From an uncultured archaeon (GTDB taxonomy: Archaea > Thermoplasmatota > Penumbrarchaeia > JASLWR01), in contig CAYFHS010000041.1 in assembly GCA_964342815.1 (NCBI GenBank), positions 1 through 37,023 on the forward strand: a stretch of 37,023 nt of DNA, read 5' to 3'. Both the position numbers and the translations under genes were made by a program. The notes beneath the pieces were generated by a model that saw only the letters and a list, made by a program, of their open reading frames with translations, was not told where the DNA came from and did no database searches. Shown here piece after piece: positions 3,702 to 36,998 of this stretch (within the stretch, counting starts at the first letter, position 1; each line of letters starts with the position of its first letter).

Positions 3702-3724
3702 TTGATTTCGTGTTTATTACACAC

Positions 3725-3931: not shown

Positions 3932-3934
3932 GTG

Positions 3935-4726: not shown

Positions 4727-4736
4727 CAGACTTTCT

Positions 4737-4989: not shown

Positions 4990-5001
4990 CACCAGGAGGC
5001 A

Positions 5002-5409: not shown

Positions 5410-5419
5410 AAAGGCTCCC

Positions 5420-5644: not shown

Positions 5645-5826
5645 TGTCTTAATCTCCTTGAACTGTGTAATTATATATATTATGTGTAATTATATAAATC
5701 TATTTCTGATATTTTCCTCGATTTTTTTCGATAAATAAACCATCGTTATGCATTCTCAAATTCGTGAAAACCGATATTTTATTGGTTTATGCGAAGTCGT
5801 GTTCTTCGTTTGTACTATCATGTGGC

Positions 5827-6135: not shown

Positions 6136-6208
6136 ACCTTTTTCATCAGTTCACGGTCAGCGATCCGTTTTAATAATCCCCGATCATCTGCACTTGAAGT
6201 AAAACTTC

Positions 6209-6598
6209 CTACAATTCGTTTGCACCCCGAATTTCTATGCCCATGTATCTCTTGAGATCACGGAGGTGTTTATCCCCCGATACAATAAGATCTACTTTTC
6301 CCGAATAGGCAGCTTCTAGTATCATATTATCTGTAGGATCCTCTTTGATGATGTCGATCTTCCTTGTTGGAAAAACAACTTCTGAAAATATAAGAATCTC
6401 TTCAACGTATGCATTGATCTTGTCGTTCGGAACTTCAAATTTCTCAAGAAGTACCCTTTCTACCTCGTCTAATATCGAAGGTGACGTTATTAACTGGTAA
6501 TTGCCTTTTTTACAATCATATAGAACTCAACGTTCATTTCCGTTCCAGAAAAAAGCGGAGATATAAATATTCGTATCGAGTACCAATTTCTTGTACAA
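6209..6598 (-). pseudogene. PIN-domain toxin with in-frame TGA (absent from the ORF track)
   Basis: TTG start after GGAGG. Reads MYKKLVLDTNIYISAFFWNGNER*VL...EDPTDNMILEAA...IVSGDKHL. TGA at 6527-6529; 130 codons in total. Confidence 0.9.
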
Positions 6599-6601
6599 AA
6601 C

Positions 6602-6868
6602 CTATCCTCCCTTTTCCCGACTCTCAGCGATCGCCTTTGCCACATCGACCTTTTTGATCTTTTTCCGCTTTGCGAATTCTTCGCCCCATTTCAAGAGTGC
6701 TTCGAATTCATTTTTGGAAGGAACATTCAACCTTTTCAACACTATGGTATCATCGTTTCCAAACATTGCGAATATTTCACCCGAGGATATTCCAAGTAAT
6801 TCCCTTAATCTTTTTGGAACAACTATCTGACCCTTCGATGACATTTTCGTGATGGCCACTTCACTCAT
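6602..6868 (-). CDS. AbrB/MazE/SpoVT-family antitoxin
   Basis: TKMSSKGQIVVPKRLRELLGI..GE motif, directly upstream of the PIN pseudogene. Confidence 0.9.
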   Translation of the reverse strand: MSEVAITKMSSKGQIVVPKRLRELLGISSGEIFAMFGNDDTIVLKRLNVPSKNEFEALLKWGEEFAKRKKIKKVDVAKAIAESREKGG

Positions 6869-6961
6869 TGTTAGCACCTACTTATAGTAAGATAATAAGA
6901 CTATCTTACTATTTAGTTTTATTGAATATCTTGTTTTTTTTTTTTAAAAACGCTCCTTTAA

Positions 6962-7045
6962 TCCTTTTCCTCCCCCAAACTCTGCAAATTCTTTTCATCC
7001 TCAATCCCCACTCCCCGGCTCTCCGTCCACTTCGCTCCCCATCAA
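6962..7045 (+). repeat. Degenerate partial repeat (C-rich tract plus CCCGGCTC motif)
   Basis: CCCCCAAACTC...CCCCGGCTC resembles 4170-4215 and 1550-1580. Confidence 0.45.
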
Positions 7046-7099
7046 TATTGGTGTGGTGCTGTACCGGTACTTCGTGACTATCTAACATAATTTTCATAA

Positions 7100-11959: not shown

Positions 11960-11960
11960 G

Positions 11961-12863
11961 TCAGGCACCTCCGTTTGCTTGGACCTTTTCAAGCAGGGGT
12001 GAAACCTTAACCTGGTTTATCTTTACCGCAAGGTCCTTTTTGGGGTCCAGCCCCATGGCGATTCCCAGAAGCTGTGAATAAAATAATACGGGGATATTGT
12101 ATTCTGCATCAAAACTTGTTTCTATTGTGGGTTGGTACTCGTCATACATAATGCTGCAGAACGGGCAGAGCAGTGTCATTGCATCTGCTTCAGCTGTTTT
12201 GATATTGTCCAGCTTTTCTTTGACCATCTTTACAGAAGTGTCTTCGGATATTGAAAGTATACCGCCGCCGCAGCACTGGAGCCTGTTTTTGTATCTTACG
12301 GAAGTAGCTCCTGTTACCTCGATCAGTTTGTCCAAACTCACAGGGTTTATGGGGTCGTCGAAGCCGTCAAATATCGTTGAGGGTTTTATGTAATGGCACC
12401 CATAATGGGGTGCGATGGTAAGACTGGTGAGAGGATTTGTAACGGCCTCTTTTACCTTGTCCAATCCGACATCTTCATACAGCACCCTGGCAAAATGTTT
12501 TACCTTGGTATTTCCCTTGTATTCAAGGTTTGAACCGCCTAGATAATCGTTTATCTTTTTTTGTTCCTCTGTGCCTCGAGGACTGCTCAGATGTTTCTGG
12601 GCCTTTGTCAGGTGTCCCGTACAGGCACTGCAAAGTGTCATGATGTCAAGTCCCTGGGCCTCCGCAAGTGCAAGATTTCTTGCAGCCAACGTTAAACCTG
12701 TCTCATGATGAACTCCTGCTATAGGAAAACCACAGCATGCGAAATCGGTTATGTCAACAATTTCAATTCCAAGCCTATCTGCAACCTTTCTTGCTGAGAG
12801 TTCATAGTTCAATCCCCTTACTGGGACTGTACAACCGAGAAACAATGCATATTTACTCATCAT
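11961..12863 (-). CDS. hdrB: Heterodisulfide reductase subunit B-like protein
   Basis: Two CCG domains (ACCGF...CSAC and CCGGG...CPFC); located between hdrC and hdrA. Confidence 0.93.
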   Translation of the reverse strand: MMSKYALFLGCTVPVRGLNYELSARKVADRLGIEIVDITDFACCGFPIAGVHHETGLTLAARNLALAEAQGLDIMTLCSACTGHLTKAQKHLSSPRGTEEQKKINDYLGGSNLEYKGNTKVKHFARVLYEDVGLDKVKEAVTNPLTSLTIAPHYGCHYIKPSTIFDGFDDPINPVSLDKLIEVTGATSVRYKNRLQCCGGGILSISEDTSVKMVKEKLDNIKTAEADAMTLLCPFCSIMYDEYQPTIETSFDAEYNIPVLFYSQLLGIAMGLDPKKDLAVKINQVKVSPLLEKVQANGGA

Positions 12864-13356
12864 TGTCTCCTCCAACTATGTCCATAACTCCAGTTTTATC
12901 CATGAGAGATTTGATGTCTGGAATCTCTGCTTTTAGAAGGGGAATGTCTTTTTTTTCCCGGACTTTATTTTCAAACTCAGATACCTCCAGCAGTCTTCCA
13001 TATTTTTCCAGCAATTCCAAACTGGCCATGTGTGCATCTGGTAAATGTCCATTCTTTACTGCGATATTTCTGATAGCACCCATAAGGTCAGTGATCTTCA
13101 CATCACGGGGGCACAGTTCATAACAATTGTAGCATCCCGAACACAGCCATATAAAATCACTTTTCAACACCACTTCTTTCATTCCCAGAATCACCATTCT
13201 GATTATCTTTCTGGGATTGTATTCAGGATTCGTTGCAAAAACAGGGCATGAAACTGTGCATGTGCCGCATGCAAAACAGTTCTTTATATTCTCCCCTCCA
13301 TGAACTTTTGCAACTTCGGACTTAAAATCAGGGTTCATTTCGTGTACATTGATCAT
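12853..13356 (-). CDS. hdrC: Heterodisulfide reductase subunit C-like protein
   Basis: CFACGTCTVSCP and CSGCYNCYELCP give two [4Fe-4S] motifs. It overlaps the hdrB start. The start could be 13368. Confidence 0.93.
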   Translation of the reverse strand: MINVHEMNPDFKSEVAKVHGGENIKNCFACGTCTVSCPVFATNPEYNPRKIIRMVILGMKEVVLKSDFIWLCSGCYNCYELCPRDVKITDLMGAIRNIAVKNGHLPDAHMASLELLEKYGRLLEVSEFENKVREKKDIPLLKAEIPDIKSLMDKTGVMDIVGGDNDE

Positions 13357-13559
13357 TTCCTTCCACATCCAGATGTTTCAAATCGAAACAATGCAAATAG
13401 TTTTTTATTATTTCGACATATGTTTTGTTTTTTGTTATTTCAGACATCTGTTCAAATATTTTTTTATGGACAACTGGACTTTCTGTTTTTCCTATCTCCA
13501 TTCCACTTGCACTGCATTTCTACCCCACGCGCTCGCCCATTCCCTGCGTCGTCATGGTG

Positions 13560-18212: not shown

Positions 18213-18689
18213 ATGAGCAAACTTGACGAAGAATGCTGCCCCCGCTTTGACCCCGAACCCTGGGACGACAAGATCATCGAATGGAACGATAAAAAATTCA
18301 TAAGGGACAAGGTTTTTACCTTATTTCATATACCGATAACTTTTGGCAAGGTTATGACAAGATTGAGCGAACGGGTGGAAAAGGCCCATGCCAAGATGCC
18401 GGACTGGCTCTGCCTGTCCCATCACACTTCGAAATGGAACATGGATCTGTATCTTGCGGTCACCAAGGAGATTCCCGGGGCCGACAACGTCAAACTGAGC
18501 GGCAAATATTTTACAAAAGTCTATGAAGGTCCCTACAAGGACACCGGAAAATGGTGCAAGGACTTTGAAAGACAGTTAAAATCAAGAAAACTTGATATGA
18601 AAACGATATATCAGTGGTACACTACCTGCCCCAAATGTGCCAAGAAATACGGCAAGAATTACGTGGTAATAGTTGCTGAATGCGGCTAG
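18213..18689 (+). CDS. Conserved small protein (often annotated 'hydrolase'; GyrI-like fold suspected)
   Basis: CCPRFDPEPWD N-terminus, YEGPY and YTTCPKCAKKYGKNYVV C-terminus. GAGGTG precedes the ATG. Confidence 0.7.
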   Translation: MSKLDEECCPRFDPEPWDDKIIEWNDKKFIRDKVFTLFHIPITFGKVMTRLSERVEKAHAKMPDWLCLSHHTSKWNMDLYLAVTKEIPGADNVKLSGKYFTKVYEGPYKDTGKWCKDFERQLKSRKLDMKTIYQWYTTCPKCAKKYGKNYVVIVAECG

Positions 18690-18691
18690 GA

Positions 18692-21600
18692 TCAACCGAA
18701 CTTCTTATCGTCCGGTATCTTCCCCGTATTTATCATCTCGTAGTCCGTCATCCGGTCGATCACATTTCCCTTCTCGTCCATGATCTCCACATCGTAATGA
18801 GTTACCCTCATGGGATCCTCCCCGGTTTCTCCCCTGTAAACGATCCGTGAAGTGAAATTCTTCGATTTCTTGGGTACCTCATAAAACTCGACCTTTTTTA
18901 TACCATTGGGTAACGACATGTTATCCCTGTGGTACATGTCGAACATACCGCAGGTCTGGAACCCGAACTCCCGGAACATGGGGCCGCTGAAGAAATGATA
19001 TTTATCGGTAAATGAGAAGAAATCTCCCACCGGCTCCCTGAACCTACCCCATCCAACCGCGTTCTTTTTTATTTTCTTACCGAGATCAGCCACGCTTCCA
19101 AGCACCTGGAAAGTGGGACCGTGGAAAAACCGGCTGTAGATACCGTCGAAATCGATAACTTCTCCCTTGGGGATCTTTCCTCTCTTCCCTTTCACCGACT
19201 TTGGCAGTTCGTTCTTCATTGTCACCGTTCCGGTAAAATGAATTCTTGGATCGCCCATTTTCAATCCCTGAGGATTGATGAAATCGCTCTCCACTGTTAC
19301 GTTTATAACTGCTTTTTTCTTGCTAACTTTGGCCGCCTCGCCAATTATTCTCACTTCAAGCGGGCGGTTCCGCAGGAGTTTTATAGGCATCTTGAATACG
19401 ATATCGTTTATCTCCACCGGATATAATTCCGGAAACATCAATCTCGAAGTCTGTGCAAACACTTCAACGCCCATTACCCCGGGCAGGTAGGGAGTCCCGG
19501 CAATGGAATGGTCTGTAAGATACAGGTCAACTTTTGTGTCGAGTTTTTTTTCCAGAATTATTTTTTTTCCAGGCTCGTGATGGTCCACCCTGTCAATGAG
19601 GGTGTATTCCGGCTTGTTATTATCAATAATTTGCTGCAGATCCCAGCTTTCTGGTGTCTGTCCGTCAGGAAGTATTATCTTGTCGGCATCCAGAAACGCT
19701 ACTTTTCCAGCAATGGTAACCTCGTTTTCCGGTCCGGAGTACAGTAATTCCTCACGAACCTTTTTCTTGCCGTACTCGAGAGGGATTAATGTTACTCCCG
19801 CATCGTCGAATATCTTCAACAGCGAGCCTCTGGTGGCCATGCCCACGCCTCTCCATCCGGTCCAGTTGGTACTTATGGATTTGCATTTTTTCCCGTACCG
19901 TTTCTGGTTAAGGTCCATGTACTTGTTCAAAAGATCGTTTGCCGATGAATAGTCCACCTGGCCAATGTTCCCGAACCGGCCCGCCACTGATGAGAACGTC
20001 ACGAACGCCTTAACATTATCCTTTTTCGTACTCTCGAATAGATTGAATGCCCCGTTTGCCTTCACGTCGAATACAAAAGCAAACTGTTCTGGTGGTTTTG
20101 CCGTGATAAGCTTTGATATTTCAATACCCGCAGCGTGTATTATGCCGTCGATTCGCCCGTATTTCTTTCGGACCTTGCTAAGGACTTCATTTATCCTATT
20201 ATGATCGGTCACGTCCGATGTGAAAAACTCCACGGTGGCCCCCATTTGTTCCATTTCCTTCATGTTGTTGTAAATGGTACGCGGCATGGTATATTTTTTG
20301 AATTCCCGCTCAACCATCACCGGGGTTGCCCGTTCACCACTGTCCTTCATCTCTTGGAATATTTTATTTTTCAATTCTTTTAACCCGTTCTCATCAAGAG
20401 CTGCAAGTTCCTCGATGTTATTGGGCATCTCAACGATATCGAGAAGGATCAAAGTGGGCTTGAAGTGAGCCGCGAGGTCCTTTGCGATCTCCGCTGTGAT
20501 ACCGAAACCCCCGCCTGGTATGACAAAGACCCAGTCCCCGGTAATATCGAGATTGGGTTTCTTGCTTGGATCCACCGCCCTATGATACATCTGAGCTATC
20601 TTTCGTACTCCTGCCTTGTAGCAAACTTCCAAACGCCCGTCCCCGTAACGTATCTCATTAACAATAAGCTTAGATGCCTTACCGGGTGATGTGAGTTTGC
20701 CGATATCGATGCATTTCACCTTTACCTTTTCGATTTCCTTGCCCAGGGCCTTCGTAAACCCGGTGATACCTCCGACAATGGGAGTTTTATATGTACCGTC
20801 TCCTTCCACACCGAATGAGCCTCCCATCTCTACAGCTGTCACAAAGAAACTACCGTTAGAAACCGATTCCGTAAGATCGCTTATGGTGGCCTTGGAAATC
20901 GCGAAGAGCGACTTTACCTTCTTTTTCGTTGCGCTCTTCCAGTCATCAAAATCCATCTTGTCAATTTCGGGTTCGTCGTCGAGACCCAGAAGATAAATTA
21001 CTCCACCCACCGACCCAAAGTCAGATTTTACCTTCCCCATTACTACTTTTTGAATTTCATAATCGGAAAGATCGAAGCTGTACGATCCCTTTTTCAGTTT
21101 TTTCTTGTCTGAATACAGGAAATCGATGACATTCGCCCCTTCTTTCTTCAGCAGCTTCTTGATCTCCTTTCCAACCCCCTTTTTATCCTGGACTATTATC
21201 AGGTTTAATCCTTTTAAATCGAGATTTACTTCGTCATTCAATGATTTCGGCACGTATCTTGTGAGGTATCTTCGCAGGTCCCTAGCCTCTCCCACAAGTT
21301 CAGGTTCCTCCACCTCAGCACCCTCGGGGGCAGGATCTTCCATTACTGTTTCATTCGTTCCTTTGACAAAGGAAACGTCATCACTAGAAACCCTTCCGGC
21401 AATGTATTGGGCAACGCTGCCTATTGTGGTATATTCGGAAAGATTTACACCTTCTTCTTGTTCAAGATTATAATGTTCACGGATGGCGGCAAACAACTCT
21501 ACCTGTTTCACAGTGTCTATCCCCAGGTCGGCCTCCATGTCGAGGTCAAGCTCCAGCATGTCCGGCGGGTATCCTGTCTTTTCGGCAACGATATCTATTA

Positions 21601-24600
21601 CCACCTTTTCGATCCCACTGGGCCCGCTAACGGATAAATCACCCTGACTTACGGATACTTCCTTCGCAGTTGTCTCCACGCTCATGGATTCACTGGCGGA
21701 ATCCGAGCTAGTCATTCCCAACCTCCCTGCGATGTAAGCAGCAACACTCCCTATTGTGGTGTATTCCGAAAGGTTCACTCCTTCCTCCTGTTCTAGTTCG
21801 TAATGTTCGCGGATAGCGGCGAATAGTTCCACCTGTTTTACAGTGTCTATCCCCAGATCGGCCTCCATGTCAAGGTCTAATTCAAGCATGTCCGGCGGAT
21901 AGCCTGTCTTCTTGCTTACTATGTCAAGTACAACCCTTTCGATCCCGCTGAGTTCGGTACCCAGCACGCCGGTCGTTGTAGCGGTATGGTCTGACCTGGG
22001 GGAAACACCCCCCGCACCCTTCTCACCGGCGATTGTTTCTGTTACCGTATCCGGGATTTCCTCGCCCAAGCTGCCTGCGATGTATTGGACCACGCTGCCT
22101 ATGGTTGAATAATTCGACAGGTTCACACCTTCTTCCTGTTCGAGTTTGTAATGTTCGCGGATAGCGGCAAACAGCTCTACCTGCTTCACCGTGTCTATGC
22201 CGAGGTCTGCCTCCATGTCGAGATCTAACTCCAGCATGTCCGGGGGATATCCGGTCTTCTCGCTTACTATGGAGATTACGACCTGCTCCAATCCGCTGGT
22301 GACACTGCCAGGTTCCATGACTATATCTTCGGGGGCACTCTGGTATGATTCACCCAGCCTGCCGGCGATATAACCAACGACACTGCCGATCGTCGAATAC
22401 TCTGAAAGGTTAACCCCCTCCTCCTGTTCGAGTCCGTAATGTTCGCGGATAGCGCCAAAGAGCTCCACCTGTTTTACAGTATCGATACCAAGGTCTGCCT
22501 CCATGTCGAGATCCAGTTCAAGCATATCAATGGGGTACCCGGTCTTCTCGCCTACAATTGCAATAACCGTTTTTTCAATTCCACCTTGAGGAGTGGATGG
22601 AGTAATGGAGGGTTGGGGGGGGGAGGGAGAAGGGGAAACCAAAGGTACAGGGGTCGGTGCCGCTACTACCTTAGGGGGTAACGCAGGGATTTTTGAAATT
22701 GCGCTCCCTTTGGCACGGGAAAGATCGTCCGTTATTCGAAGTGTTTTGTTAACCACTTCTATCTTGGCCACTCTCTGCTGTGATATCCTGTGAAGCCATC
22801 CGTCATATGTACCCTTATCAATAATCCTGAATTCATCAGTGTTCACTATCTTTGTAAGCGTCATTGCGATTTGTGAGCCGAAACCGGCTGAGAATCTCAA
22901 TGCGTATTTGTAGTATTTTCGTTCCCCCTTGGAGAGTCGGAGTCCCTCTAGGTAAGGGTCAGGTACTTTGTAATTCGCTATGGGCGGGATCTTGCCTTTT
23001 TGGAGCAATCTGATAGCGATGACATCCTCTATGCCGCATCCGAAAGCGTGACCGGTGAAACCCTTTGTGTTGGTGATAAGTATCTTCTTGTAATCCTCGC
23101 CGAAAGTGCCCTCGAGAGCGTCCTTCTCCGCGTTGGAACTGCCGCCTCTTGCCGGAGTGTACGTTTCATGGGATATGAAGACCATGTCATCCACGAGACT
23201 TTTCCTTGCAAACCCGTACCTGCGCTCCAATCTCTCGAAGAAATGATTCATCTCTGCCGCCACATGTTTTGTGTCCAGGCGCGTGGCATGATAGGCGCTG
23301 TTCGCCATGTAGGTACCCATCAATTCCACTATCGGGTCCATGCCTCTATTTGCCACATCTTCGGCCCGTTCCAGTACCATCCCAGCAGCCCCCATTCCGA
23401 CTATGAGCCCTTTTCGCCTTTTATCGAAGGGAAGCGCCGCTTCTTCAAGATTTCCCTCGGTAGTTGCAGCTCCATTGGCCAACAGGGATGTTACCAGCCA
23501 TTCCATGTTGTACTTTGCAGTTGGAGCATCTCCCGAAATGAGAAGTACACGCCGGCATCTACCCATCCTGAGGAGATCCTCCGCCATACCCACTCCCTGA
23601 GTGGTTGTTGCACAGGCCGAGTTATTATGTATGTTCGGACCCCTGGCATTGATGAGCTGAGCGAACTGGGCATGACCGAGGGAGAGAACATTGAGCATGA
23701 ATTTTCTGTTGAATTCGTAAACCGGCATATCGTCGAGTCCATTGGATAGGTCCGAGTACAGAGTGGCGAACCGGTCTGTGAGCTCCTTTTTGATGTCATC
23801 ATTTTCCACCCTGCTTATTAGGGATGCGTAAAGGTTCAGAAGCTCCCGTTTCGCCCCGGGCCCGTATTTGTCCATATAATATTCCGATGTCAATTTCAGA
23901 AGTTGGTCATAACCCGGAAAAGTGGTGGAAAAAATTATCGCCGTATCCTCCTGCATTTCTGGGGGAAGCTCCCAGTTCCCTGGAAGATAATTACCCGTTG
24001 ATGTTCGGTTGTACTTCTTGACAAGAGGTATCCCGGCGTCTCTCATGGCTTCCAGTCCGGCGGCAATGGCCAGCATGGAGGATATATCTAGTGCCTTTAT
24101 AAGTTCTTCTTCGATCCCATATTCTTTGTGAAGGTCGAATCGCCCCATCTGGCCCGCCAGTTTGATCACATGGGAATCATCCTCGATCCTCTCAAAGTGA
24201 GCCTGGCCGTTACTGGCCTTGAAAAGCTTTACGATGTTCTTGTCCAGGAACTTTTTTCGATACTCCTTATCTATTGTATCTATCAGGTTTACACCATCAA
24301 GGATGAGATCGGTATTCTTCTCATCGAAAACTTTTTTGAATTTCCCCGGAAGACCAAGTCCGGCTCCAGTGATAACTATTTGATCAAGATAGAGGTTCAA
24401 GTTCTTTACCTTCCTGCCAAGTTCGATGTATTCCGCTATCTCCGGGGTTGCGACCTTATTTGTCATCTGAAGCGGCGGTGCAAATCTCTCTTTCGACATT
24501 CTCATCTCCGGATGAATGTCGGTTTGGGCCCCTGGAGCCCTTGCTCCCATGGCTCTGCCGGCTGATATAAATTGAGTGGTAAAGAGATTTCCGTCATTGG

Positions 24601-27600
24601 AAGGGTCATACTGTTTTATCGGAACACCACAGGAACTGAGTGCGGCCAATGCTTCGTTAAATGATTGGATTCCTCCCTTCTTCGGATGATTAGTGAGGAT
24701 TGCTCTGTGAGGCCGTTCGCTGAATATGTTTTTAACAGAGATGGTAAGGGCCCTTTTTGATCCCACTTCCACGAAAACCTTGACCCCGAGTTCATTGTAC
24801 ATGGTTTCCATTTCCTTTACCCATTCCACCGCCCCGGCCACCTGTTCCTTCAAAATATCGCGGATCTCTTCCGGGGCGTCTTCCCCGGTGGGATAAAGTC
24901 CGCCGTGGACATTGGTCAATGTTGGTATTTTCGGAGCATGAATTGGTATATTGGAGAGAAATCTCCGAAGAGGTTTCTTTGCCGGGGCGACGATGTTGGA
25001 ATGAAATGCATGAGAAACGGGCAGCATGATGCAGTTCACGCCCGATTCCTTTAGTTTTTCCACAGCATCTACTACCGCCTGGCTTTCTCCAGAGATCACG
25101 TTTTCTCGGTAAGAATTCTTGTTCGCTACAATTGCATAACCTTCGATCGAATCCAGTACTTCCTGCACTTTCATCTCATCTGCTCCGATTGATGCCATCT
25201 TACCTTTATCGTCTATCTGTACATTGGCCATCTCCCTGCCTCTGGCGGCAGCAGCACGAAGGGCGCTCTCGAAATCCATCACACCACTGGCCACCAGAGC
25301 GCCGTACTCACCTAGTGAATGACCGGCAACAGCTGCGGGCTTAACCCCGAATTGATTCAGCAAGCGATATAGTGCGATGTCCCCGGTTATCATTGCCGGC
25401 TGAGTGATCTCGGTCTTCCTGAGATCGGCGATCTTCCCCTTGACAATATCTTGGTCTTCACCATCATCCGAAAAAATTATATCAGTTAGAGGTCTTCCAT
25501 TGATACCCGTCATAATTATGTCGGATTCATCGAAGGTTTCCTTGACTATTCGGTATTTTTCACCCAGATCCCTGAGCATGTTGAGATATTGGGAACCCTG
25601 GCCCGGAAAGATGAAACCCACCGTGGGAATATCTCCATCCCCCGATTTTATTTCATTTATCGATTCCGGGTCGTTATAAAATATCCCTCTGGTTTCCAGA
25701 ACGAACATCCTGTCTCGATTTTCCAGATGTTCCCAAGATAGGTTCAGTTTTGCTATGAGATCTTCGGGGTTTGGGGAGGCAATGCTGAGGCGGTATCCGT
25801 TATTATTAACCGGTCCTAAATGAGTGTTAATATTATGGGTGAATTCCGAGAGCCTGAATCCTGCGAGCGATTTTTCGCGCTCCAATCCCTCCTTGACTTC
25901 ATGAACCATCTTTTTTAATTCCTTAAGGTTGGCCGACGTTAGGCAAAGCATAGTCCCTTCCAGATGCTCCTTATTCTCCAGATACTCATCCAGATCGAAA
26001 TCGGATGGGATATATTCTTGCACATCTGGTGCCGATGTTTTTACTATTGAATCCAAACTTTGCGTTTTCCGTACATGGGGTAGTTGAACTTGGGGTATGG
26101 ATACCGGATATTGTCCTGTGTATTCCTCAAGGGTTATATGAAAGTTGGATCCCCCGAAACCGAAAGAACTCACACCGCCTCGCAGCGGATATTCCCTCCC
26201 GTTTATAATTGGTCTTTTCCAGGGCTTTTGCTCTGTTGCTACGTAAAGAGGTGTTTTCCCTAGATCGATCTGATTGTTGGGCACTCTGTAATTGATTGTG
26301 GGTGAAATTATCTTCTTATTCAGCGCCAGGATCATTTTTATCATCCCTGCTACTCCCGCGGCGCTTTTCAGGTGGCCAATTTGGGATTTTATGGAACCGA
26401 TTCCCACAGATCCCTTCCCAAGATTGCACTTTGACCATATGTCGGCAAGGGTCTGGAGCTCCACTGCATCTCCCACAACGGTTGATGTTCCGTGGGCTTC
26501 AACAAGCGTCACCGTCTCGGGACCATAACCGGCCTTATCGTGGGCCATCTCTATAGCCTGGAGCTGGCCCGGGGGATTGGGGGCAGTTATCCCCTTCCCT
26601 TTTCCGTCGCTTGAAGATCCGATCCCCCGGATCACCGCATATATCCGATCTCCGTCCTCCATGGCATCGGATAGACGCTTCATGACCAGTATTCCGGCAC
26701 CTTCCCCCATGACAAAGCCGTTGGCTCCGGCATCGAACGGCCTGCTACCGTCCTTGGACAGAGCGCCGATCTTGCAGAATTTAATATAGGTAGGAGGGTT
26801 CATTGTCCTGTCGACTCCCCCAGTTATCACCATGTCATAATCCCGGGCCCAGAGTCCCTTTATGGCAGTGTCTATAGCTGCCAGTGACGAGGCGCATGCT
26901 GCATCGGTGGTAAAGTTTGCTCCCTTGAAATTGAATACACTGGCGACCCTTGCGGCTACAATATTTGATAATTCTCCGGGCATTGTATCTTCATTTACAG
27001 GGGGCAGCCCCATGGAAAACTTTTCTTCCATCCTTTTAATGGCTTCGATCTTCTCCAATTCCGGAACGGAAGTGAATAATCCGTTCTCCTCAGCTACCTT
27101 GATGAACTCCTGAAGATGAATTCTGTTGTTGTTGATATCCCGATATTCCCCTCCTTGGGCGTTAGCAATGATAACCGCGATCCTGGTTCGGTCAATATCC
27201 TTGTGGTGATATCCCGAGTCTTCCCAGGCTTGTTTTGTAGCGGCCAGGGTCCAGAGCTGGATCGGGTCCACGTGTGCCACTGTGGTTGGCGGTATCCTGA
27301 AAGCGAGCGGATTAAATTGAAATCCATCCACAAAAGCACCGATTTTCGAGTATGTCTTGTTCAGAACTGTGGGGTCGGGGTCATAAAAAATATCTTTATC
27401 CCATCTATCATCGAAGATCTCTCTGATGGAATCCTTCTTTGATCGGATGTTGTTCCAGAAGCTATCAATTGTGAGAGCATCGGGCATGATGCAGCCCATA
27501 CCGATGACGGCAATAGGCTCAAATTTTGATTTGTAATAATCCTCGAAGAATTCGTTGTGGATCAGTGGATCACCCACAGATGAATCTGTGGATGGAGATC

Positions 27601-28273
27601 TCCCTGGTTCTTCGGATTCATCCTCATTGTTTATTCCCTCTGTAGGAGCTTCGGTGGCCGATGCCTCAATTTTTTCTTCCGGCTCCGCTTTGATAGGTTC
27701 CCCCGTTTCCACTGCACCGACTCGCTCTGCGATAAAATCCACAACACTGCCAATGGTTGGATATTCGGATAGATTTACACCTTCTTGGGAGGGCAGATCG
27801 TATTCTTCACGTATGGCTGCAAATAGTTCAACCTGCTTTACCGTGTCGATTCCGAGATCAGCTTCCATGTCGAGATCAATTTCCAGCATGTCCGGAGGAT
27901 AGCCCGTCTTTCCGGCAACTATCTCAAGAACTCTTTTACTGATATCGTTTTTTGCAGGCCCCTCAACGCGGTTTTCGTTTTCGATTGAAACGGGCTCAGT
28001 CGCTTCCGGCCTTATCTCAACCCCTATTCTATTGGCAATAAAATCAACAACATTGCGAATAGTGGGATAATCGGACAGGTTTACGCCTTCTTCAGTATCC
28101 AATTCGTATTGTTCCCGTATGGCGGCAAATAGCTCTACTTGTTTAACCGTGTCGATCCCGAGATCAGCTTCCATGTCAAGGTCCAATTCTAGCATGTCGG
28201 GAGGATACCCTGTTTTTTCAGATACTATGTCAAGGACCTTCCGTTCGATGTCTGTTATATTATTTGTAGGCAT
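18692..28273 (-). CDS. Type I iterative PKS/FAS-like megasynthase: ACP-ACP-KS-AT-KS-ACP-ACP-ACP-ACP-KR-DH
   Basis: KS1 has DAACASS, EAHGT and GHLKSAAG. AT has GHSLG and HAFH. KS2 has SACATT, SHET and GHAFG. There are six LGIDTVKQ ACPs. KR has GGGFGI and YSSAN. DH has HSIAGTPYLP. The ATG at 28273 follows GGTG; the ORF track starts at 28300. Confidence 0.95.
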   Translation of the reverse strand: MPTNNITDIERKVLDIVSEKTGYPPDMLELDLDMEADLGIDTVKQVELFAAIREQYELDTEEGVNLSDYPTIRNVVDFIANRIGVEIRPEATEPVSIENENRVEGPAKNDISKRVLEIVAGKTGYPPDMLEIDLDMEADLGIDTVKQVELFAAIREEYDLPSQEGVNLSEYPTIGSVVDFIAERVGAVETGEPIKAEPEEKIEASATEAPTEGINNEDESEEPGRSPSTDSSVGDPLIHNEFFEDYYKSKFEPIAVIGMGCIMPDALTIDSFWNNIRSKKDSIREIFDDRWDKDIFYDPDPTVLNKTYSKIGAFVDGFQFNPLAFRIPPTTVAHVDPIQLWTLAATKQAWEDSGYHHKDIDRTRIAVIIANAQGGEYRDINNNRIHLQEFIKVAEENGLFTSVPELEKIEAIKRMEEKFSMGLPPVNEDTMPGELSNIVAARVASVFNFKGANFTTDAACASSLAAIDTAIKGLWARDYDMVITGGVDRTMNPPTYIKFCKIGALSKDGSRPFDAGANGFVMGEGAGILVMKRLSDAMEDGDRIYAVIRGIGSSSDGKGKGITAPNPPGQLQAIEMAHDKAGYGPETVTLVEAHGTSTVVGDAVELQTLADIWSKCNLGKGSVGIGSIKSQIGHLKSAAGVAGMIKMILALNKKIISPTINYRVPNNQIDLGKTPLYVATEQKPWKRPIINGREYPLRGGVSSFGFGGSNFHITLEEYTGQYPVSIPQVQLPHVRKTQSLDSIVKTSAPDVQEYIPSDFDLDEYLENKEHLEGTMLCLTSANLKELKKMVHEVKEGLEREKSLAGFRLSEFTHNINTHLGPVNNNGYRLSIASPNPEDLIAKLNLSWEHLENRDRMFVLETRGIFYNDPESINEIKSGDGDIPTVGFIFPGQGSQYLNMLRDLGEKYRIVKETFDESDIIMTGINGRPLTDIIFSDDGEDQDIVKGKIADLRKTEITQPAMITGDIALYRLLNQFGVKPAAVAGHSLGEYGALVASGVMDFESALRAAAARGREMANVQIDDKGKMASIGADEMKVQEVLDSIEGYAIVANKNSYRENVISGESQAVVDAVEKLKESGVNCIMLPVSHAFHSNIVAPAKKPLRRFLSNIPIHAPKIPTLTNVHGGLYPTGEDAPEEIRDILKEQVAGAVEWVKEMETMYNELGVKVFVEVGSKRALTISVKNIFSERPHRAILTNHPKKGGIQSFNEALAALSSCGVPIKQYDPSNDGNLFTTQFISAGRAMGARAPGAQTDIHPEMRMSKERFAPPLQMTNKVATPEIAEYIELGRKVKNLNLYLDQIVITGAGLGLPGKFKKVFDEKNTDLILDGVNLIDTIDKEYRKKFLDKNIVKLFKASNGQAHFERIEDDSHVIKLAGQMGRFDLHKEYGIEEELIKALDISSMLAIAAGLEAMRDAGIPLVKKYNRTSTGNYLPGNWELPPEMQEDTAIIFSTTFPGYDQLLKLTSEYYMDKYGPGAKRELLNLYASLISRVENDDIKKELTDRFATLYSDLSNGLDDMPVYEFNRKFMLNVLSLGHAQFAQLINARGPNIHNNSACATTTQGVGMAEDLLRMGRCRRVLLISGDAPTAKYNMEWLVTSLLANGAATTEGNLEEAALPFDKRRKGLIVGMGAAGMVLERAEDVANRGMDPIVELMGTYMANSAYHATRLDTKHVAAEMNHFFERLERRYGFARKSLVDDMVFISHETYTPARGGSSNAEKDALEGTFGEDYKKILITNTKGFTGHAFGCGIEDVIAIRLLQKGKIPPIANYKVPDPYLEGLRLSKGERKYYKYALRFSAGFGSQIAMTLTKIVNTDEFRIIDKGTYDGWLHRISQQRVAKIEVVNKTLRITDDLSRAKGSAISKIPALPPKVVAAPTPVPLVSPSPSPPQPSITPSTPQGGIEKTVIAIVGEKTGYPIDMLELDLDMEADLGIDTVKQVELFGAIREHYGLEQEEGVNLSEYSTIGSVVGYIAGRLGESYQSAPEDIVMEPGSVTSGLEQVVISIVSEKTGYPPDMLELDLDMEADLGIDTVKQVELFAAIREHYKLEQEEGVNLSNYSTIGSVVQYIAGSLGEEIPDTVTETIAGEKGAGGVSPRSDHTATTTGVLGTELSGIERVVLDIVSKKTGYPPDMLELDLDMEADLGIDTVKQVELFAAIREHYELEQEEGVNLSEYTTIGSVAAYIAGRLGMTSSDSASESMSVETTAKEVSVSQGDLSVSGPSGIEKVVIDIVAEKTGYPPDMLELDLDMEADLGIDTVKQVELFAAIREHYNLEQEEGVNLSEYTTIGSVAQYIAGRVSSDDVSFVKGTNETVMEDPAPEGAEVEEPELVGEARDLRRYLTRYVPKSLNDEVNLDLKGLNLIIVQDKKGVGKEIKKLLKKEGANVIDFLYSDKKKLKKGSYSFDLSDYEIQKVVMGKVKSDFGSVGGVIYLLGLDDEPEIDKMDFDDWKSATKKKVKSLFAISKATISDLTESVSNGSFFVTAVEMGGSFGVEGDGTYKTPIVGGITGFTKALGKEIEKVKVKCIDIGKLTSPGKASKLIVNEIRYGDGRLEVCYKAGVRKIAQMYHRAVDPSKKPNLDITGDWVFVIPGGGFGITAEIAKDLAAHFKPTLILLDIVEMPNNIEELAALDENGLKELKNKIFQEMKDSGERATPVMVEREFKKYTMPRTIYNNMKEMEQMGATVEFFTSDVTDHNRINEVLSKVRKKYGRIDGIIHAAGIEISKLITAKPPEQFAFVFDVKANGAFNLFESTKKDNVKAFVTFSSVAGRFGNIGQVDYSSANDLLNKYMDLNQKRYGKKCKSISTNWTGWRGVGMATRGSLLKIFDDAGVTLIPLEYGKKKVREELLYSGPENEVTIAGKVAFLDADKIILPDGQTPESWDLQQIIDNNKPEYTLIDRVDHHEPGKKIILEKKLDTKVDLYLTDHSIAGTPYLPGVMGVEVFAQTSRLMFPELYPVEINDIVFKMPIKLLRNRPLEVRIIGEAAKVSKKKAVINVTVESDFINPQGLKMGDPRIHFTGTVTMKNELPKSVKGKRGKIPKGEVIDFDGIYSRFFHGPTFQVLGSVADLGKKIKKNAVGWGRFREPVGDFFSFTDKYHFFSGPMFREFGFQTCGMFDMYHRDNMSLPNGIKKVEFYEVPKKSKNFTSRIVYRGETGEDPMRVTHYDVEIMDEKGNVIDRMTDYEMINTGKIPDDKKFG
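21400..22575 (-). repeat. Four tandem ACP-coding repeats inside the PKS (two more at ~27735-28250)
   Basis: Repeated KTGYPxDMLELDLDMEADLGIDTVKQVELFxAIRExY units, visible at DNA level with synonymous divergence. Confidence 0.95.
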
Positions 28274-28470
28274 TTTTACACCTTTTCGTTGGTGTGGCAA
28301 ATGGGCCGAAAAATTTTCAATTGAGTATGAAATAATCTTATATAACTCTATTATCTAATGAACCACTGTGAAATTTATATTATTCAGTGGAATTCTCGAG
28401 AAAGACGACCTGACAAATGTGATTTCAAAGAGAAAAACATATCATGGATTACAAAATGAGATATTAAAAG

Positions 28471-29358
28471 TTAGCTCTCTGACTCCTTCTTTTTTTCCTC
28501 TTTTGCTTTTCTCCGTTTCTCCTTTGCCTCTTTTCTCATCTGGATCCGCTCTAGAATCAGTTTCATGTACTGCGCATCATGTTCCAGTAAAGGTGAAGTG
28601 GAGATTATGGTCACATCCAGATCGGGATTCTCAAGTAAACATTCGGCAAGAGGTTCGAACTTGATATCACTCTTCTTAATCGGGGTGTCCATGCGCTTGT
28701 TCCCGTTCTTGTGATCAACACCTGAGAAATGAGTATAGAAGGTTTTTTCGCCAGTGGTTGCGATAACTTGGTCAAATATGCTCTGGTACGCTTCTTTCTT
28801 TCTCAATATTCCCTTCTCGCGTGCGTGAATGTGGCCGAAATTGACCACTGGTACCAGTTTAGGGACCTCTTCTACAAGGGTAAGTATCTCTTCAAGACTG
28901 CCAAATACCTTTTCCCTGCCTGAAGTGACAAAACCAAGTCGAACCTTGTAATCCTTTTTCTCTATGTACTCAATGAGGTCGCTTCCGTCGTCAATGGCCT
29001 GGTTCATAGCCTTCGAGGGAGAGTATTCGTTGTAGAGACCCAGATGGCTGATAACATAGCTCACTCCCAGGTCACTGGCAACAGCCATGGATTTGCGAAT
29101 ATTCTCAAGGCTTCTCTTTCTCGACGCAGGCGTGCCGAAGATATCCATATAATAAGGAGTATGAACTGACAGGGTAACGTTTAGCTCTCGCGCAAGTATC
29201 CCCAGCTCTAAACAGTTCTCATTTTGGAATATGGGGAATCGCAGTAACTGGGTTTCCATGGCGTCGAGGTCAAGTGCGTGAATGTCATCGATGCTATCTT
29301 TGAGGGTTCGCCCTTTGCACGTTAGAGGAATCCCTGCTATACCAAAATATACGGACAT
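28471..29358 (-). CDS. Endonuclease IV (AP endonuclease family 2)-like TIM-barrel protein, probably catalytically degenerate
   Basis: FGIAGIP N-terminus, SVHTPYY, SHLG, HIHAR and HFSG match archaeal Nfo-like proteins, but several expected acidic or His ligands are replaced. Confidence 0.8.
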   Translation of the reverse strand: MSVYFGIAGIPLTCKGRTLKDSIDDIHALDLDAMETQLLRFPIFQNENCLELGILARELNVTLSVHTPYYMDIFGTPASRKRSLENIRKSMAVASDLGVSYVISHLGLYNEYSPSKAMNQAIDDGSDLIEYIEKKDYKVRLGFVTSGREKVFGSLEEILTLVEEVPKLVPVVNFGHIHAREKGILRKKEAYQSIFDQVIATTGEKTFYTHFSGVDHKNGNKRMDTPIKKSDIKFEPLAECLLENPDLDVTIISTSPLLEHDAQYMKLILERIQMRKEAKEKRRKAKEEKKKESES

Positions 29359-29766: not shown

Positions 29767-32700
29767 TCATTCCGGATCTCTCGATAATACCTTCGAATTC
29801 GCTGCTGGTGGGAGTTTCGCCTGTTCCAACGGTTCCAAGTGTTTCTGTACTTCTGATGGTATTGAAACATGAACTTCGGATGTTTCATTATCCGAAACTA
29901 GCAATGGTTGGGCTTCCGGATTTGTCAAAGGAAATACGTCTGCGTCGGTTTCAGGAGTTTCCCGTTCTACAGCCTTCTGTATAGTCTCCTCATAGGCTGA
30001 GGGGTACATTTGGTACTGTTCAAAGCCAACTGCTGATAGTTTCCCCTCGCTAGATTGCACACTGGGCAGGTTTTCCAATGGCCCCCTTATCATGGGTTCG
30101 CGCCTGATATAACCATGCTGGATGGAACCAGCCATGTTGCTTGTTTCAATTTTCGGAGCGATAATCTGGGCAGTGGGGATATTCGATTTTAAACCACCGG
30201 TCGGTACGTGCTCGATATCCGCAAAGTCCTCCACCATCTCGTCGCTTTTCTCCTTCTTTTTCCTTGATCTGATCAATATTATTATGATCACAAGTATCGT
30301 GAACAGAATGACCGCTATGACAGATGACCAGAGCCATTTGGAACCAGATGATTTCTCAGGCGTTTGTTCAAGCTCGTCAATTATGATCACCTCGAGTTCA
30401 GCTATAGCTTCTCCACCCAAGTAGCTCGCATGGATCGTCAAAATGTAATTTCCCGTTTTCATCTGGTCGTTTGTTATTATTTTTATAATAGTCGTGTTAA
30501 ATTTATTGGGGCCCAGGTTAAAAACGGGAGTGAATACTATCCTGTCTTTAAGATCACCCGACACACTCATATTGATGGATTCCTGCCCGTTTCCAAGGTT
30601 TTTTATCTCCAGCTTAACGGATCCGACTGCCCCCCTGATTATCCGGACGTTCTCCCTTTCCAGGGATAGTGCCACATGATGCACAAGTATGAATCCCTCT
30701 TTTACTTCAAATATACGGGTACCGCCTATACAGACCCCTTCCATATCGCCCAGTCTCGGAATGATCTTCCAGTAATATGTCGTCTTATCCTTAAGCTGAT
30801 CAATGGTGTAATTCTGAGAAGTGATATTCTCTGCAATCAGAGGAGGTGTTTTTTCACTACCAAAATAAACGTCATATCTAAGAAAAGTTGCATGATCGCC
30901 CAGAGCGGTCCATCTCAATACTGTGGCTGTATAGTTTATTATACTGTTGTTTTCAGGGGTATCCAATCTGACTGCGGGAATGAAATCCTCTGCTGTGATA
31001 TTTACGTAGAAGCTAAGGGCCGAGGACATCTTCTTCGACGTTTCCTCACCGTCGAAGGCTTCCACGCGCCAATAATAAAGACCGTTAACCAGGTCTTTGG
31101 ATTCCCAGTATGTATGATCGAGGTCGGAGACGACCTTGTTCGTTCCATTGTCATTGTCCAAATAAACGTTGTACGTAAGAAAATCGTTATCAGCATCTGT
31201 GCCGTTCCATTCCAATAAAACCCCATCTGAGAAAAAAACAGTACCGTTCATCGGTGAGCTGGCTGTGCAGGTGGGAGCGGTGTTCAGAATAGTAATTTCC
31301 GGCGATCTTTGCGAAGGACCGTATTCGTCCCCATCGCCAGGCCTTACGGTGAAATACCAAATATCGTTCTTCTCCGTCGCATTATGACCGATAACATGAT
31401 GATCATCATAATCATACATGTGAAGGTTGTTTCGGAACCATTTTATCTCGGTCTCGTTTTCCATATCTTCATCGGCGTCCGAATAATTCCAAATGGCGGT
31501 GAGATTATCTCCGGTCCTGGCTTGGGAAGGAATGATAAAGGTCTCGTAGGCCTTCGGAGGCGAATTACCAATGATTATTTCCGATGAATGGACAGTTTGC
31601 CCCAATTCATCACCATCCCCTGGAAGCAAACTGACGTTCCACTTCATATTTCGGGAGGTGGCAGAGGCGGGAATGACGAGCAAATCGTTATAGTCCTCAA
31701 CCAGTGAACCATTTTCATACCAGCGAATTGAAGTTCCCGATTCTGTGTCGTTATCAGAGTCATGGAAAGTGTAGTTGATGCTAAGATTGTCAGTGGTCTT
31801 TGGATTGTTGGGTAGGATGCGCAGATTATTGACTTGTGGGGGGGTGTTCAGTATTGTTCTATTGAATGCAGAAACCGGATCGCCAGTGGTGAGGCCGTCT
31901 CCCGGTATAACAGTGAACGACCAGTTCTCCCCCTTCGAGGTGTAGTTTGAGTGAACGATCTGTTTATCGTATAGCTCATTTACTACAAGACCGTTACAGT
32001 ACCATCGAATAAACGTTCCGTTCTCAACGTCGTCGTCCGTATCGGTGAAATTATATCGTGCAGTCAGGTTATTGGCAGTTCTCGGCTCCATAGGATCTAT
32101 TGATAGATTCATAACCTTGGGGGGATTGTTCGTCATGATAGCATAAACGTAACCCTTTCCCGCATTGTTACCCCCTCCATCATGGCCTAAAGCACCAATT
32201 ATGACATCATCGTATCCATCTTTGTTGACATCTCCGGCTGAAGCGACGCTGTATCCAAAACGGTCCTCTTTATTCTCACCTGTCCTAGTCCAAAACGCTG
32301 TTTCATTAATTGTAATTCCACCGAGATAAACATAACTCTTACCCGCATTGTTTCCCCCATCATCATTGAAGAGCGAGCCGACGATGATATCGTCGAATTC
32401 ATCGCCATTTACATTAAATGCCGACGCAACTATGGAGCCGTACTCATCCCCCTTTGCTTCCCCCATGATCTCGCAGAATGAATTTTGGCCCATTGGCGTA
32501 CCCCCTAAATATACGTAGATTTTACCGGCATTGTCAGAAGATTCGTCGCTCTTTGGAGCCCCTATTATTACATCGTCAAGGCCGTCGTTATTGACATCTC
32601 CTGCAGAGGCCACGCATTCACCGAAGCTATCATACTCCATTTCCCCGGTTCTTTCCCAGAACGGACTCTGGGATATCTCATCTCCACCAAGATGAATATA

Positions 32701-33582
32701 CGCTTTTCCCGCGCCGTCGGCTCCTTCGTCGTTGTTATCCGCCCCAATTATTATATCATCGTAATCGTCTCCATTAACATTACCAGCGGAAGCTACGGAT
32801 CCACCGTAATTATTGTGATCCTCTTCGCCATTCTTTTGCCAGTACGGTGTATCGGACATCTCGATACCGCCAAGATAAACGTATGCCTTTCCCCTGCTGT
32901 TCCCGTTCCCGTCTTGTTCTTTGGCCCCGACGATGACATCATCAAATCCGTCATTGTTCACATCGCCAGCCGATGCCACACTGCACCCGTATTCGTCTCC
33001 CTCCTCCTCACCTATGCAGGTCCAGAATGCGCTTCCACCCATGGGATCACCACCAAGGAAGATATAGGCCTTCCCCTTGTAGGTATTCCCATCCCTGAAG
33101 GTTGGCGCCCCAATAATGACGTCATTGAATCCGTCGCCATTTACGTCGCCGGCTGATGCGACGCTGGTGCCGAATTTATGATTCCATGCCTCTCCTCTCT
33201 TTTGCCAGAAAGGATTATTTGATGTACTTTGACCTCCCCGGTATATATAAACCTTGCCAGCATCCATGCCACTGTCGTCGTTATACTTGACTCCCACGAT
33301 AAAATCATCATAGCTGTCATTGTCAATATCCCCTGCAGAAGCTACAGACATGCCGAACCGGTCCTCTGCGTTCTCTCCCAAATCATCCCAGAGCTTGATA
33401 TTTGCATAAGTACCCCGGGTCTCAGGCAGCTTCTCATGAGAGTTTTCCCGGTCTCTGTTATTTGACAGATAGACATTATTTTCCGGAGAAATTACGCTAA
33501 ATACCCTAAAACCTGAACAAATGATGAATAGCATCAGACAAATGATAATTATCTTTAAGGGATTCGTTTCCTGTTTGGGCAT
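29767..33582 (-). CDS. Membrane-anchored surface protein with seven FG-GAP repeats and Ig/FnIII-like domains
   Basis: Signal-like N-terminus; seven (F/Y)GxxVASAxx(V/I)xxDxxxD repeats; three NxPP...DxDxDxE...I(R/K)W repeats; C-terminal transmembrane helix followed by RSRKKKEK. Confidence 0.9.
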   Translation of the reverse strand: MPKQETNPLKIIIICLMLFIICSGFRVFSVISPENNVYLSNNRDRENSHEKLPETRGTYANIKLWDDLGENAEDRFGMSVASAGDIDNDSYDDFIVGVKYNDDSGMDAGKVYIYRGGQSTSNNPFWQKRGEAWNHKFGTSVASAGDVNGDGFNDVIIGAPTFRDGNTYKGKAYIFLGGDPMGGSAFWTCIGEEEGDEYGCSVASAGDVNNDGFDDVIVGAKEQDGNGNSRGKAYVYLGGIEMSDTPYWQKNGEEDHNNYGGSVASAGNVNGDDYDDIIIGADNNDEGADGAGKAYIHLGGDEISQSPFWERTGEMEYDSFGECVASAGDVNNDGLDDVIIGAPKSDESSDNAGKIYVYLGGTPMGQNSFCEIMGEAKGDEYGSIVASAFNVNGDEFDDIIVGSLFNDDGGNNAGKSYVYLGGITINETAFWTRTGENKEDRFGYSVASAGDVNKDGYDDVIIGALGHDGGGNNAGKGYVYAIMTNNPPKVMNLSIDPMEPRTANNLTARYNFTDTDDDVENGTFIRWYCNGLVVNELYDKQIVHSNYTSKGENWSFTVIPGDGLTTGDPVSAFNRTILNTPPQVNNLRILPNNPKTTDNLSINYTFHDSDNDTESGTSIRWYENGSLVEDYNDLLVIPASATSRNMKWNVSLLPGDGDELGQTVHSSEIIIGNSPPKAYETFIIPSQARTGDNLTAIWNYSDADEDMENETEIKWFRNNLHMYDYDDHHVIGHNATEKNDIWYFTVRPGDGDEYGPSQRSPEITILNTAPTCTASSPMNGTVFFSDGVLLEWNGTDADNDFLTYNVYLDNDNGTNKVVSDLDHTYWESKDLVNGLYYWRVEAFDGEETSKKMSSALSFYVNITAEDFIPAVRLDTPENNSIINYTATVLRWTALGDHATFLRYDVYFGSEKTPPLIAENITSQNYTIDQLKDKTTYYWKIIPRLGDMEGVCIGGTRIFEVKEGFILVHHVALSLERENVRIIRGAVGSVKLEIKNLGNGQESINMSVSGDLKDRIVFTPVFNLGPNKFNTTIIKIITNDQMKTGNYILTIHASYLGGEAIAELEVIIIDELEQTPEKSSGSKWLWSSVIAVILFTILVIIIILIRSRKKKEKSDEMVEDFADIEHVPTGGLKSNIPTAQIIAPKIETSNMAGSIQHGYIRREPMIRGPLENLPSVQSSEGKLSAVGFEQYQMYPSAYEETIQKAVERETPETDADVFPLTNPEAQPLLVSDNETSEVHVSIPSEVQKHLEPLEQAKLPPAANSKVLSRDPE

Positions 33583-33853
33583 ATCCTGGCTCCAATAAAC
33601 TTCTCCGAATGAATAATAATAATAGTATTTCCGATATATATGGTATCCTTTTGCTTATGATTATTGGAATAATAAATAATTCTCATGGGTTCGCGATTCA
33701 TGAAATTTTTTTGGTAACCTAATTTATCTCATATCAGTATCGAAAAAATGTAGCGAGGTTCGATTAAAAAAAGTTGGCCAGTAAAATTGTACCGGACACC
33801 TGACGAAATTGGCTAAATCCACATAAATAAATCAAAATTTACTATCTCTGACT

Positions 33854-36766: not shown

Positions 36767-36998
36767 ATCGACACCGGGATAGTAATAATTATACCGATAT
36801 AAATGGATTGTTGATTTGCGTATCCGCACCAATATCAAAAACAAATTTGTGTTCAAATATTTGAGGATAAAGACCCATTCTTCCGGTTTGTCTTTGTGTG
36901 ATGCTTGAAAAGGAATCGATTCGATGGCTTGCAGTGTTCCCCCATAAAATGCATGGTTTCAACTGTCTTAGAGAGGGTGTGCCGGAGCAGAAAAAAAG

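Follow-up and report, generated by a model that had tools for sequence, protein, structure and literature searches.

A predicted Type R Pfa-like type I synthase with threonine at its carrier sites in Thermoplasmatota archaea

The window considered here is the entire 37,023-nucleotide contig CAYFHS010000041.1 (C41) from assembly GCA_964342815.1, a genome bin of an uncultured marine Thermoplasmatota archaeon that comprises 4.35 Mb in 116 contigs and is 88.9% complete. Its minus strand codes for a giant multidomain protein that, judged by domain order and sequence similarity, is an archaeal member of the Type R Pfa-like synthases, a known but uncharacterized family. The gene is a single uninterrupted frame that runs from a TTG at 28300 or an ATG at 28273 to a stop at 18692-18694, the product being 3,202 aa long from the TTG and 3,193 aa from this first ATG. 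A preliminary description of the DNA had reported an intact open reading frame of about 3190 aa with a ketosynthase (KS), a malonyl-type (HAFH) acyltransferase (AT), a second KS, six acyl carrier proteins (ACPs), a ketoreductase (KR) and a dehydratase (DH). Pfam recovers every one of these domains within the one frame: six PP-binding domains (two N-terminal, four central), the KS at residues 261-671, the AT at 896-1191, KS2 at about 1290-1870, the catalytic part of the KR at 2675-2817 and a PKS-type DH at 2910-3192. The whole protein also scores 1211.7 bits against the NCBIfam PfaA model TIGR02813, for which the cut-off is 1010.1. The components of the gene are as follows.

18692-28273, minus strand: megasynthase gene, in the order ACP-ACP-KS-AT-KS-ACP4-KR-DH (Pfam and TIGR02813)
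28274-28345, minus strand: upstream region with a GGTG (candidate Shine-Dalgarno sequence) 6 nt before the ATG and TTATATAA (candidate TATA box) at 28338-28345
28037-28243, minus strand: N-terminal ACP 1, with Thr (ACG, 28148-28150) at the phosphopantetheine position
27731-27934, minus strand: N-terminal ACP 2, with its Thr codon at 27842-27844
26090-27520, minus strand: KS1 and its C-terminal extension; Cys469 (26894-26896), His603 and His643 (P0001 numbering)
24728-25615, minus strand: AT with GHSLGE (Ser995) and the malonyl-type HAFH (1097-1100); FabD, 199 bits
22691-24433, minus strand: FabF-like KS2 with an intact Cys1563-His1711-His1751 triad
21401-22570, minus strand: four tandem ACPs (22367-22570, 22079-22282, 21731-21934 and 21401-21604), each with DLGIDTVKQVEL
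19721-21223, minus strand: KR region, structural half plus catalytic half; glycine-rich motif from residue 2595, Tyr2784
18725-19573, minus strand: PKS-type double-hotdog DH with HxxxGxxxxP and His2931, where the protein terminates

The catalytic motifs of KS1, AT, KS2, KR and DH are all intact. The Pfam domain scan found no thioesterase (TE), reductase (R), enoyl reductase (ER) or phosphopantetheinyl transferase (PPTase) domain in the protein, which thus does not show the in-line ER and the TE or MPT release domain of a fatty acid synthase (FAS) of the animal or fungal type I kind. Upstream of the gene, the archaeal-style GGTG ribosome-binding site proposed in the preliminary description is present, as far as a reading of the letters goes. 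The box claimed alongside it is present too, one base off the position given for it (28339-28346); lying in an AT-rich spacer, it is a plausible candidate for an archaeal TATA box.

A search with the KS2-ACP region retrieves thousands of proteins of about 3,000-3,200 aa, the best of which share the architecture and are 40-46% identical over 93% of the region. The named matches come from Korobacteraceae, Terriglobales, Elusimicrobiaceae, Caldilineaceae, Chloroploca, Saprospiraceae, Leptospiraceae, Myxococcales, Kineosporiaceae and Desulfoluna. The Type R secondary lipid synthases were described as a single pfaA homolog, with a malonyl acyltransferase (MAT) and a chain length factor (CLF) in the order KS-MAT-CLF-ACP(3-6)-KR, and a PPTase gene directly after it (Shulse & Allen 2011, PLoS One 6:e20146, PMC3098273). 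The hosts listed were Koribacter, Solibacter, Elusimicrobium and Roseiflexus, with no archaea among them, and the product was given as unknown (PMC3098273); in the literature that we searched, there is no later characterization of these synthases and no characterized product. The window's synthase has in common with them a pfaA-like KS-MAT-second KS-ACP(3-6)-KR(-DH) gene and a dedicated PPTase. Its core reads KS-AT-KS-ACP4-KR-DH, preceded by the two N-terminal ACPs, and its kinship to the family is seen with relatives from Acidobacteria, Elusimicrobia and Chloroflexi, groups in which these synthases are common, rather than with the exact reference strains of 2011. It differs from the described Type R systems in its archaeal host, in the two extra ACPs and in having its PPTase in trans instead of directly downstream, there being no PPTase on contig C41; we treat such adjacency as a matter of cluster layout rather than of protein-family membership.

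We built a maximum-likelihood tree of KS1-AT plus KS2 from the best 120 database matches (97 sequences, 1,489 columns, midpoint root), and the named bacterial relatives and the archaeal clades fall together in it. No catalytic residue varies among the 97 aligned members. As KS2 keeps its Cys-His-His in every one of them, it does not qualify as a CLF as the term is used for a type II polyketide synthase (PKS), and the label of 2011 is misleading. Where the preliminary description saw a PfaA-type iterative enzyme of bacterial affinity, making a fatty-acyl or polyketide lipid, the affinity stands by the TIGR02813 score and the identities above, and the assignment is refined to Type R rather than to a polyunsaturated fatty acid (PUFA) synthase. 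Our KS phylogeny covers these 97 family sequences, and in it the window's own family and its sister family form one clade.

We refer to these families as f1, the window's own, with four genomes (G000, which is the window's, to G003; 89-93% complete), and f7, its sister in the same class, with 24; f31 is a third family. Full-length orthologs are present in 4/4 genomes of f1, counting the window's own, and in 23/24 of f7, the one from the f1 genome of the window's own genus (Thermoplasmatota archaeon ETNP2_MAG_1) being 92-94% identical. Tree supports are 0.998 for f1, 1.0 for f7 and 0.996 for the two combined with one metagenomic protein. In 201 genomes drawn evenly from the phylum, the KS2 region was found in 74, one of them a closed genome of 2.06 Mb; some of the contigs that carry it exceed 100 kb, with a maximum of 151 kb. 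The synthase is hence no oddity of one contig: it is common in Thermoplasmatota, being present in about a third of the genomes sampled, and it is resident and vertically inherited in these archaea, within a family that is otherwise mostly bacterial. The only small-subunit (SSU) rRNA gene of the bin fits the archaeal model (1513 bits) better than the bacterial model (1096 bits), and the tetranucleotide correlation of the contig with the genome mean is 0.973, the median for contigs being 0.984. The archaeal context claimed earlier thus survives the taxonomic check by rRNA, by composition and by the orthologs in f1, f7 and the wider phylum. A second archaeal clade, made up of a partial protein from a Heimdallarchaeota genome and a protein from a "Methanobacteriota archaeon", stands apart, with sequences from Elusimicrobia and Spirochaetota falling between it and the first in the tree of the best 120 matches.

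The preliminary description had made its reading depend on an activating PPTase somewhere in the genome, and an Sfp/HetI-type enzyme of 269 aa is indeed coded by a free gene on contig C4 (L023:7780-8589). The f7 orthologs, which are about 3,700 aa long, have an N-terminal ER of the nitronate monooxygenase (NMO) type and a C-terminal PPTase domain, to which the C4 protein is 35% identical; the f1 proteins have one to three ACPs in place of that ER and lack the PPTase domain. f1 genomes contain the PPTase solely as a free protein and f7 genomes solely as the fused domain; this alternation between split and fused forms links the C4 gene to the synthase. In the closed f31 genome the gene order is FabI-like ER, synthase, Sfp-type PPTase, and in an Elusimicrobiaceae genome it is synthase, PPTase, carboxyltransferase. 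A source of malonyl-CoA shows a parallel linkage. Contig C13 of the window's genome codes for a single-chain acetyl-CoA carboxylase (ACC) of 2,113 aa with an ACC_central domain, and among 41 relatives this domain is confined to synthase-bearing genomes (4/4 in f1, 11/24 in f7 and 0 elsewhere). In the f7 genome G017 (contig C17, L059:834-7262) a single-chain, eukaryote-type ACC of 2,142 aa begins 88 bp past the synthase stop, and a Kineosporiaceae genome likewise has an ACC directly downstream of its synthase. Upstream of that Kineosporiaceae synthase (L048:4180-10004) are genes for the beta and alpha subunits of an electron transfer flavoprotein (ETF), an Fer4+CCG protein and an acyl-CoA dehydrogenase, the last overlapping the synthase start; they could be an enoyl-reducing module acting in trans or merely a neighboring beta-oxidation cluster.

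The carriers depart from the known pattern at the cofactor site itself. All six ACPs match the PF00550 fold and carry DLGIDTVKQVEL, whose Thr falls, in the alignment, at the Ser that is phosphopantetheinylated in solved ACPs, so that the conserved Ser is missing from each; the Thr is specified by both ACG and ACT codons. The same residue is found in nearly every ACP of about 120 family proteins, bacterial and archaeal, with 4-8 carriers each, and Ser occupies the site in a few first ACPs of f7. In the free ACP of a type II-like cluster on contig C33, whose gene neighbors one for an AcpS-type PPTase, the motif is the canonical DSL. We argue that the Thr carriers would work from the conservation of these large intact synthase genes, whose active sites do not vary and which have a PPTase dedicated to them. 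The family-wide change from Ser to Thr at the cofactor site is a simple biochemical puzzle open to direct testing.

In the four f1 genomes we found nothing with the ER domain of f7, the FabI of f31 or the PfaD model (TIGR02814), and a PF03060 search there gave only weak, nonspecific matches. With no ER found in f1, either in cis or as the partners seen in relatives, the chain would be left unsaturated (polyenoyl or hydroxy-enoyl) or be reduced by another enzyme. On domain content alone, by analogy with RerA of Rhodococcus (see below), the f1 chain would stay unsaturated. Contig C33 (L022:8434-15398) codes for a second, type II-like carrier system, comprising the AcpS-type PPTase, a FabZ-like DH, a 205-aa protein, a FabF-like KS, a FabG-like short-chain dehydrogenase/reductase (SDR), a nitroreductase, a 130-aa ACP with the canonical DSL Ser and a long C-terminal tail, a second SDR and a radical-SAM enzyme.

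For the fate of the finished chain, the best lead comes from PlsC-type acyltransferases, which are present in the synthase-bearing families f1, f5 and f7 and absent in nine families without the synthase, f3 being the exception; four archaeal control genomes have none. The myxobacterial Pfa3 carries a fused AGPAT (PlsC-like) domain and is a precedent for the direct transfer of a Pfa-type product to a lysophospholipid. The acyltransferase of the window's system differs from it in being neither fused nor adjacent to the synthase, the link being phyletic only. In all four f1 genomes, searches with PF01884 and with tblastn using two class-level proteins found no geranylgeranylglyceryl phosphate (GGGP) synthase. 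Of the f7 genomes, 21/24 have this enzyme, as does every other family sampled apart from f5, whose genome G007 (85% complete) gave no match. The same four f1 genomes do contain CarS and a glycerol-1-phosphate dehydrogenase (G1PDH)-like Fe-ADH_2 protein, and GpsA was not clearly found. From the retention of the first two and the lack of a clear GpsA, isoprenoid ether lipids probably remain the basis of the membrane in f1, and CarS and the G1PDH-like protein in 4/4 genomes make an unrecognized substitute for the GGGP synthase likely. We also considered an archaeon without ether lipids, and for the same reasons we do not claim a membrane of the bacterial type.

Based on these features, we think it likely that the window's gene codes for a functional archaeal Type R Pfa-like iterative type I synthase, and we infer the following mechanism for it. 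The single-chain ACC of contig C13 would supply malonyl-CoA, and the free Sfp/HetI-type PPTase of contig C4 would prime the six carriers on their conserved Thr. The HAFH acyltransferase would then put malonyl units on the carriers, and the two intact KSs would carry out repeated rounds of elongation, each probably handling a different range of chain lengths, as the KSs of PfaA and PfaC do. Each beta-keto group would be processed by the KR and the DH, and the completed long acyl chain would be handed to a lipid, with the PlsC-type acyltransferases as the best candidates for this step. A bolder form of the proposal, to which we give an even chance, is that the carriers of the whole family are Thr-primed by a co-evolved Sfp-type PPTase, yielding a natural O-phosphopantetheinyl-threonine, a linkage undescribed for any carrier, and that the ER-less f1 synthase feeds PlsC-type acyltransferases where no GGGP synthase was found.

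Several points weigh against this mechanism. Characterized PPTases attach the cofactor to Ser; to our knowledge, a Thr-linked phosphopantetheine has never been demonstrated, and the literature that we searched holds no description of one, so that the priming step is one that we infer. The synthase has no TE or other release domain, and an all-against-all BLAST of its neighbors revealed no conserved one in f1. The co-occurrence with PlsC is supported by no more than three or four independent lineages; as these are few and related, it is a lead and not a proof. Lastly, weak NMO matches and the FabG/FabL-like SDRs on contig C33 leave room for an unrecognized ER; as ER partners recur in the sister lineages, such a reductase in f1 is a real possibility, and one C33 SDR is a candidate for it.

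Among the alternatives, a bacterial contig mis-binned into the archaeal genome, or a chimera, might be suspected from the mostly bacterial distribution of the family and from the window itself, which has no rRNA and for which the tRNA and Rfam scans were empty. The orthologs in independent metagenome-assembled genomes (MAGs) that share the host's genus, family, class or phylum, on contigs as long as 151 kb and in the closed genome, together with clades that track the host families and a composition that matches the bin, effectively exclude a mis-binned bacterial contig; this alternative is largely refuted and barely credible. Nor is the protein at all likely to be a subunit of a canonical PUFA synthase of the kind making eicosapentaenoic or docosahexaenoic acid (EPA/DHA), which we hold to be highly improbable. 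The TIGR02813 score above the cut-off and the tandem ACPs speak for it, and PfaA and the Schizochytrium OrfA (TIGR02813) do share the order KS-MAT-tandem ACP-KR-DH. They differ in that the window's synthase has an extra, in-line KS, Thr for Ser in the carriers and no PfaB, PfaC or PfaD partner that we could find. In the window's genome, at its 88.9% completeness, we found no PfaD (TIGR02814), no PfaB, no PfaC-type protein with a KS-CLF and the FabA DH2, and no other large KS protein, and dehydratase candidates were limited to one small FabZ-like gene; since PfaB, PfaC and PfaD were not found, the system is not a PUFA synthase. A third possibility is that the synthase is dead or a carrier-inactive relic whose Thr cannot be phosphopantetheinylated, and, as far as is known, Ser-to-Thr changes inactivate characterized ACPs. 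Set against this are the Thr conserved through 4-8 carriers in each of the ~120 proteins, the invariance of the catalytic residues in 97/97 members, the frames of 9-11 kb intact in dozens of genomes, the dedicated PPTase fused or adjacent in relatives and the occasional Ser at the same site, in view of which we find a relic very unlikely.

The remaining alternatives accept an active enzyme and differ over its product. It may be a primary de novo FAS, making saturated chains with the help of an ER in trans, such as one of the C33 FabG/FabL-like SDRs, for esterification into membrane lipids by PlsC. The recurrence of ERs in relatives (the fused NMO of f7, the FabI of f31 and the fused ER in the Desulfoluna relative), the linkage of the synthase to ACC, its co-occurrence with PlsC and the failure to find GGGP synthase in 4/4 f1 genomes would fit this; a FabI or NMO-type ER was found in none of those four, all of which keep CarS and the G1PDH-like Fe-ADH_2 with no clear GpsA, and we see it as a tentative possibility. 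It is somewhat unlikely that the protein is instead an ER-less, polyene-forming iterative PKS that would yield not a membrane fatty acid but a conjugated polyene serving as a pigment or antioxidant. There is a precedent in RerA of Rhodococcus erythropolis PR4, a KS-AT-ACP2-KR-DH protein that works with a PPTase/TE protein and makes C22 nonaenes (PMC11563203). RerA/RerB and the enediyne PKSs (PKSE) have in common with the window's system an iterative KS-AT-ACP-KR-DH without ER and a dedicated PPTase, which is C-terminally fused in both PKSE and the f7 orthologs; in f1, too, the KS-AT-ACPn-KR-DH order comes with no ER found in cis or in trans. The fit is poorer elsewhere: those enzymes have no KS2, one or two ACPs and a TE partner, whereas the window's synthase has a KS2 and six ACPs (4-6 being the range set against PKSE and RerA) and no TE that we could find, and the ERs of the sister lineages argue that the family normally reduces its chain. 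The functional Type R synthase described above, with either outcome for the double bonds, is the reading that we retain.

Textbooks describe archaea as having neither FAS I nor FAS II, and neither ACP nor ACP synthase. The same absence was stated in a 2024 study that reported an ACP-independent fatty acid synthase complex from Sulfolobus acidocaldarius (bioRxiv 10.1101/2024.07.05.601840). That complex is CoA-based and unrelated to the window's synthase, though both concern archaeal fatty-acid synthesis. The present family would be an exception to the stated absence: a carrier-protein-dependent acyl-chain system that has a priming enzyme and a malonyl-CoA source of its own and has long resided in roughly one in three of the Thermoplasmatota genomes sampled. 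It provides the "lipid divide" question with a concrete gene to express and to knock out. In a genome-mining survey of marine archaeal genomes, only one cluster class was more frequent than T1PKS, the type I PKS class (PMC10304266), and the Type R synthase may explain many of the T1PKS calls in marine archaeal MAGs.

The immediate surroundings of the gene include a convergent neighbor.

18213-18689, plus strand: 158-aa gene matching PF20603 ("Bacterial hydrolase"), convergent with the synthase and ending 3 nt from its stop

This gene is not conserved beside the synthase in relatives, and no link between the two could be shown. On the other side, the gene at 28471-29358 had been called an archaeal Nfo-like neighbor. 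It does match AP_endonuc_2 (E 1e-19), and only this broad family of xylose-isomerase-like TIM barrels; an identity as Nfo is possible and goes beyond what such a match shows. It is also the only neighbor that BLAST found to be shared, with the same-genus genome, and a candidate FG-GAP neighbor conserved between families was rejected on that result. Further along (29767-36856, minus strand) are genes for two large surface proteins with C-terminal membrane anchors, one with FG-GAP repeats and fn3 domains (1,271 aa) and the other with a PQQ-type beta-propeller and Big_5 (1,000 aa).

At 7100-13368 on the minus strand, a 1,630-aa fusion protein combines HdrA-like, GltD-like pyridine-nucleotide oxidoreductase and MvhD (FlpD) modules, with genes for an HdrB-like (CCG) and an HdrC-like (Fer4) protein upstream. 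Elsewhere in the bin, the 11.6-kb contig C55 has a tetranucleotide correlation with the genome mean of 0.49, far under that of every other contig of at least 10 kb, and may be a contaminant or a mobile element. In the first 7,100 nt of the window (1-7100), the palindrome TTATGTGCAGTACTGCACATAA recurs at about 253, 1595, 3477, 4400 and 6080, each copy flanked by repeats of 45-300 nt. These repeats separate small open reading frames that include PIN and ribbon-helix-helix (toxin-antitoxin-like) genes, and the region looks like an integron-like cassette array.

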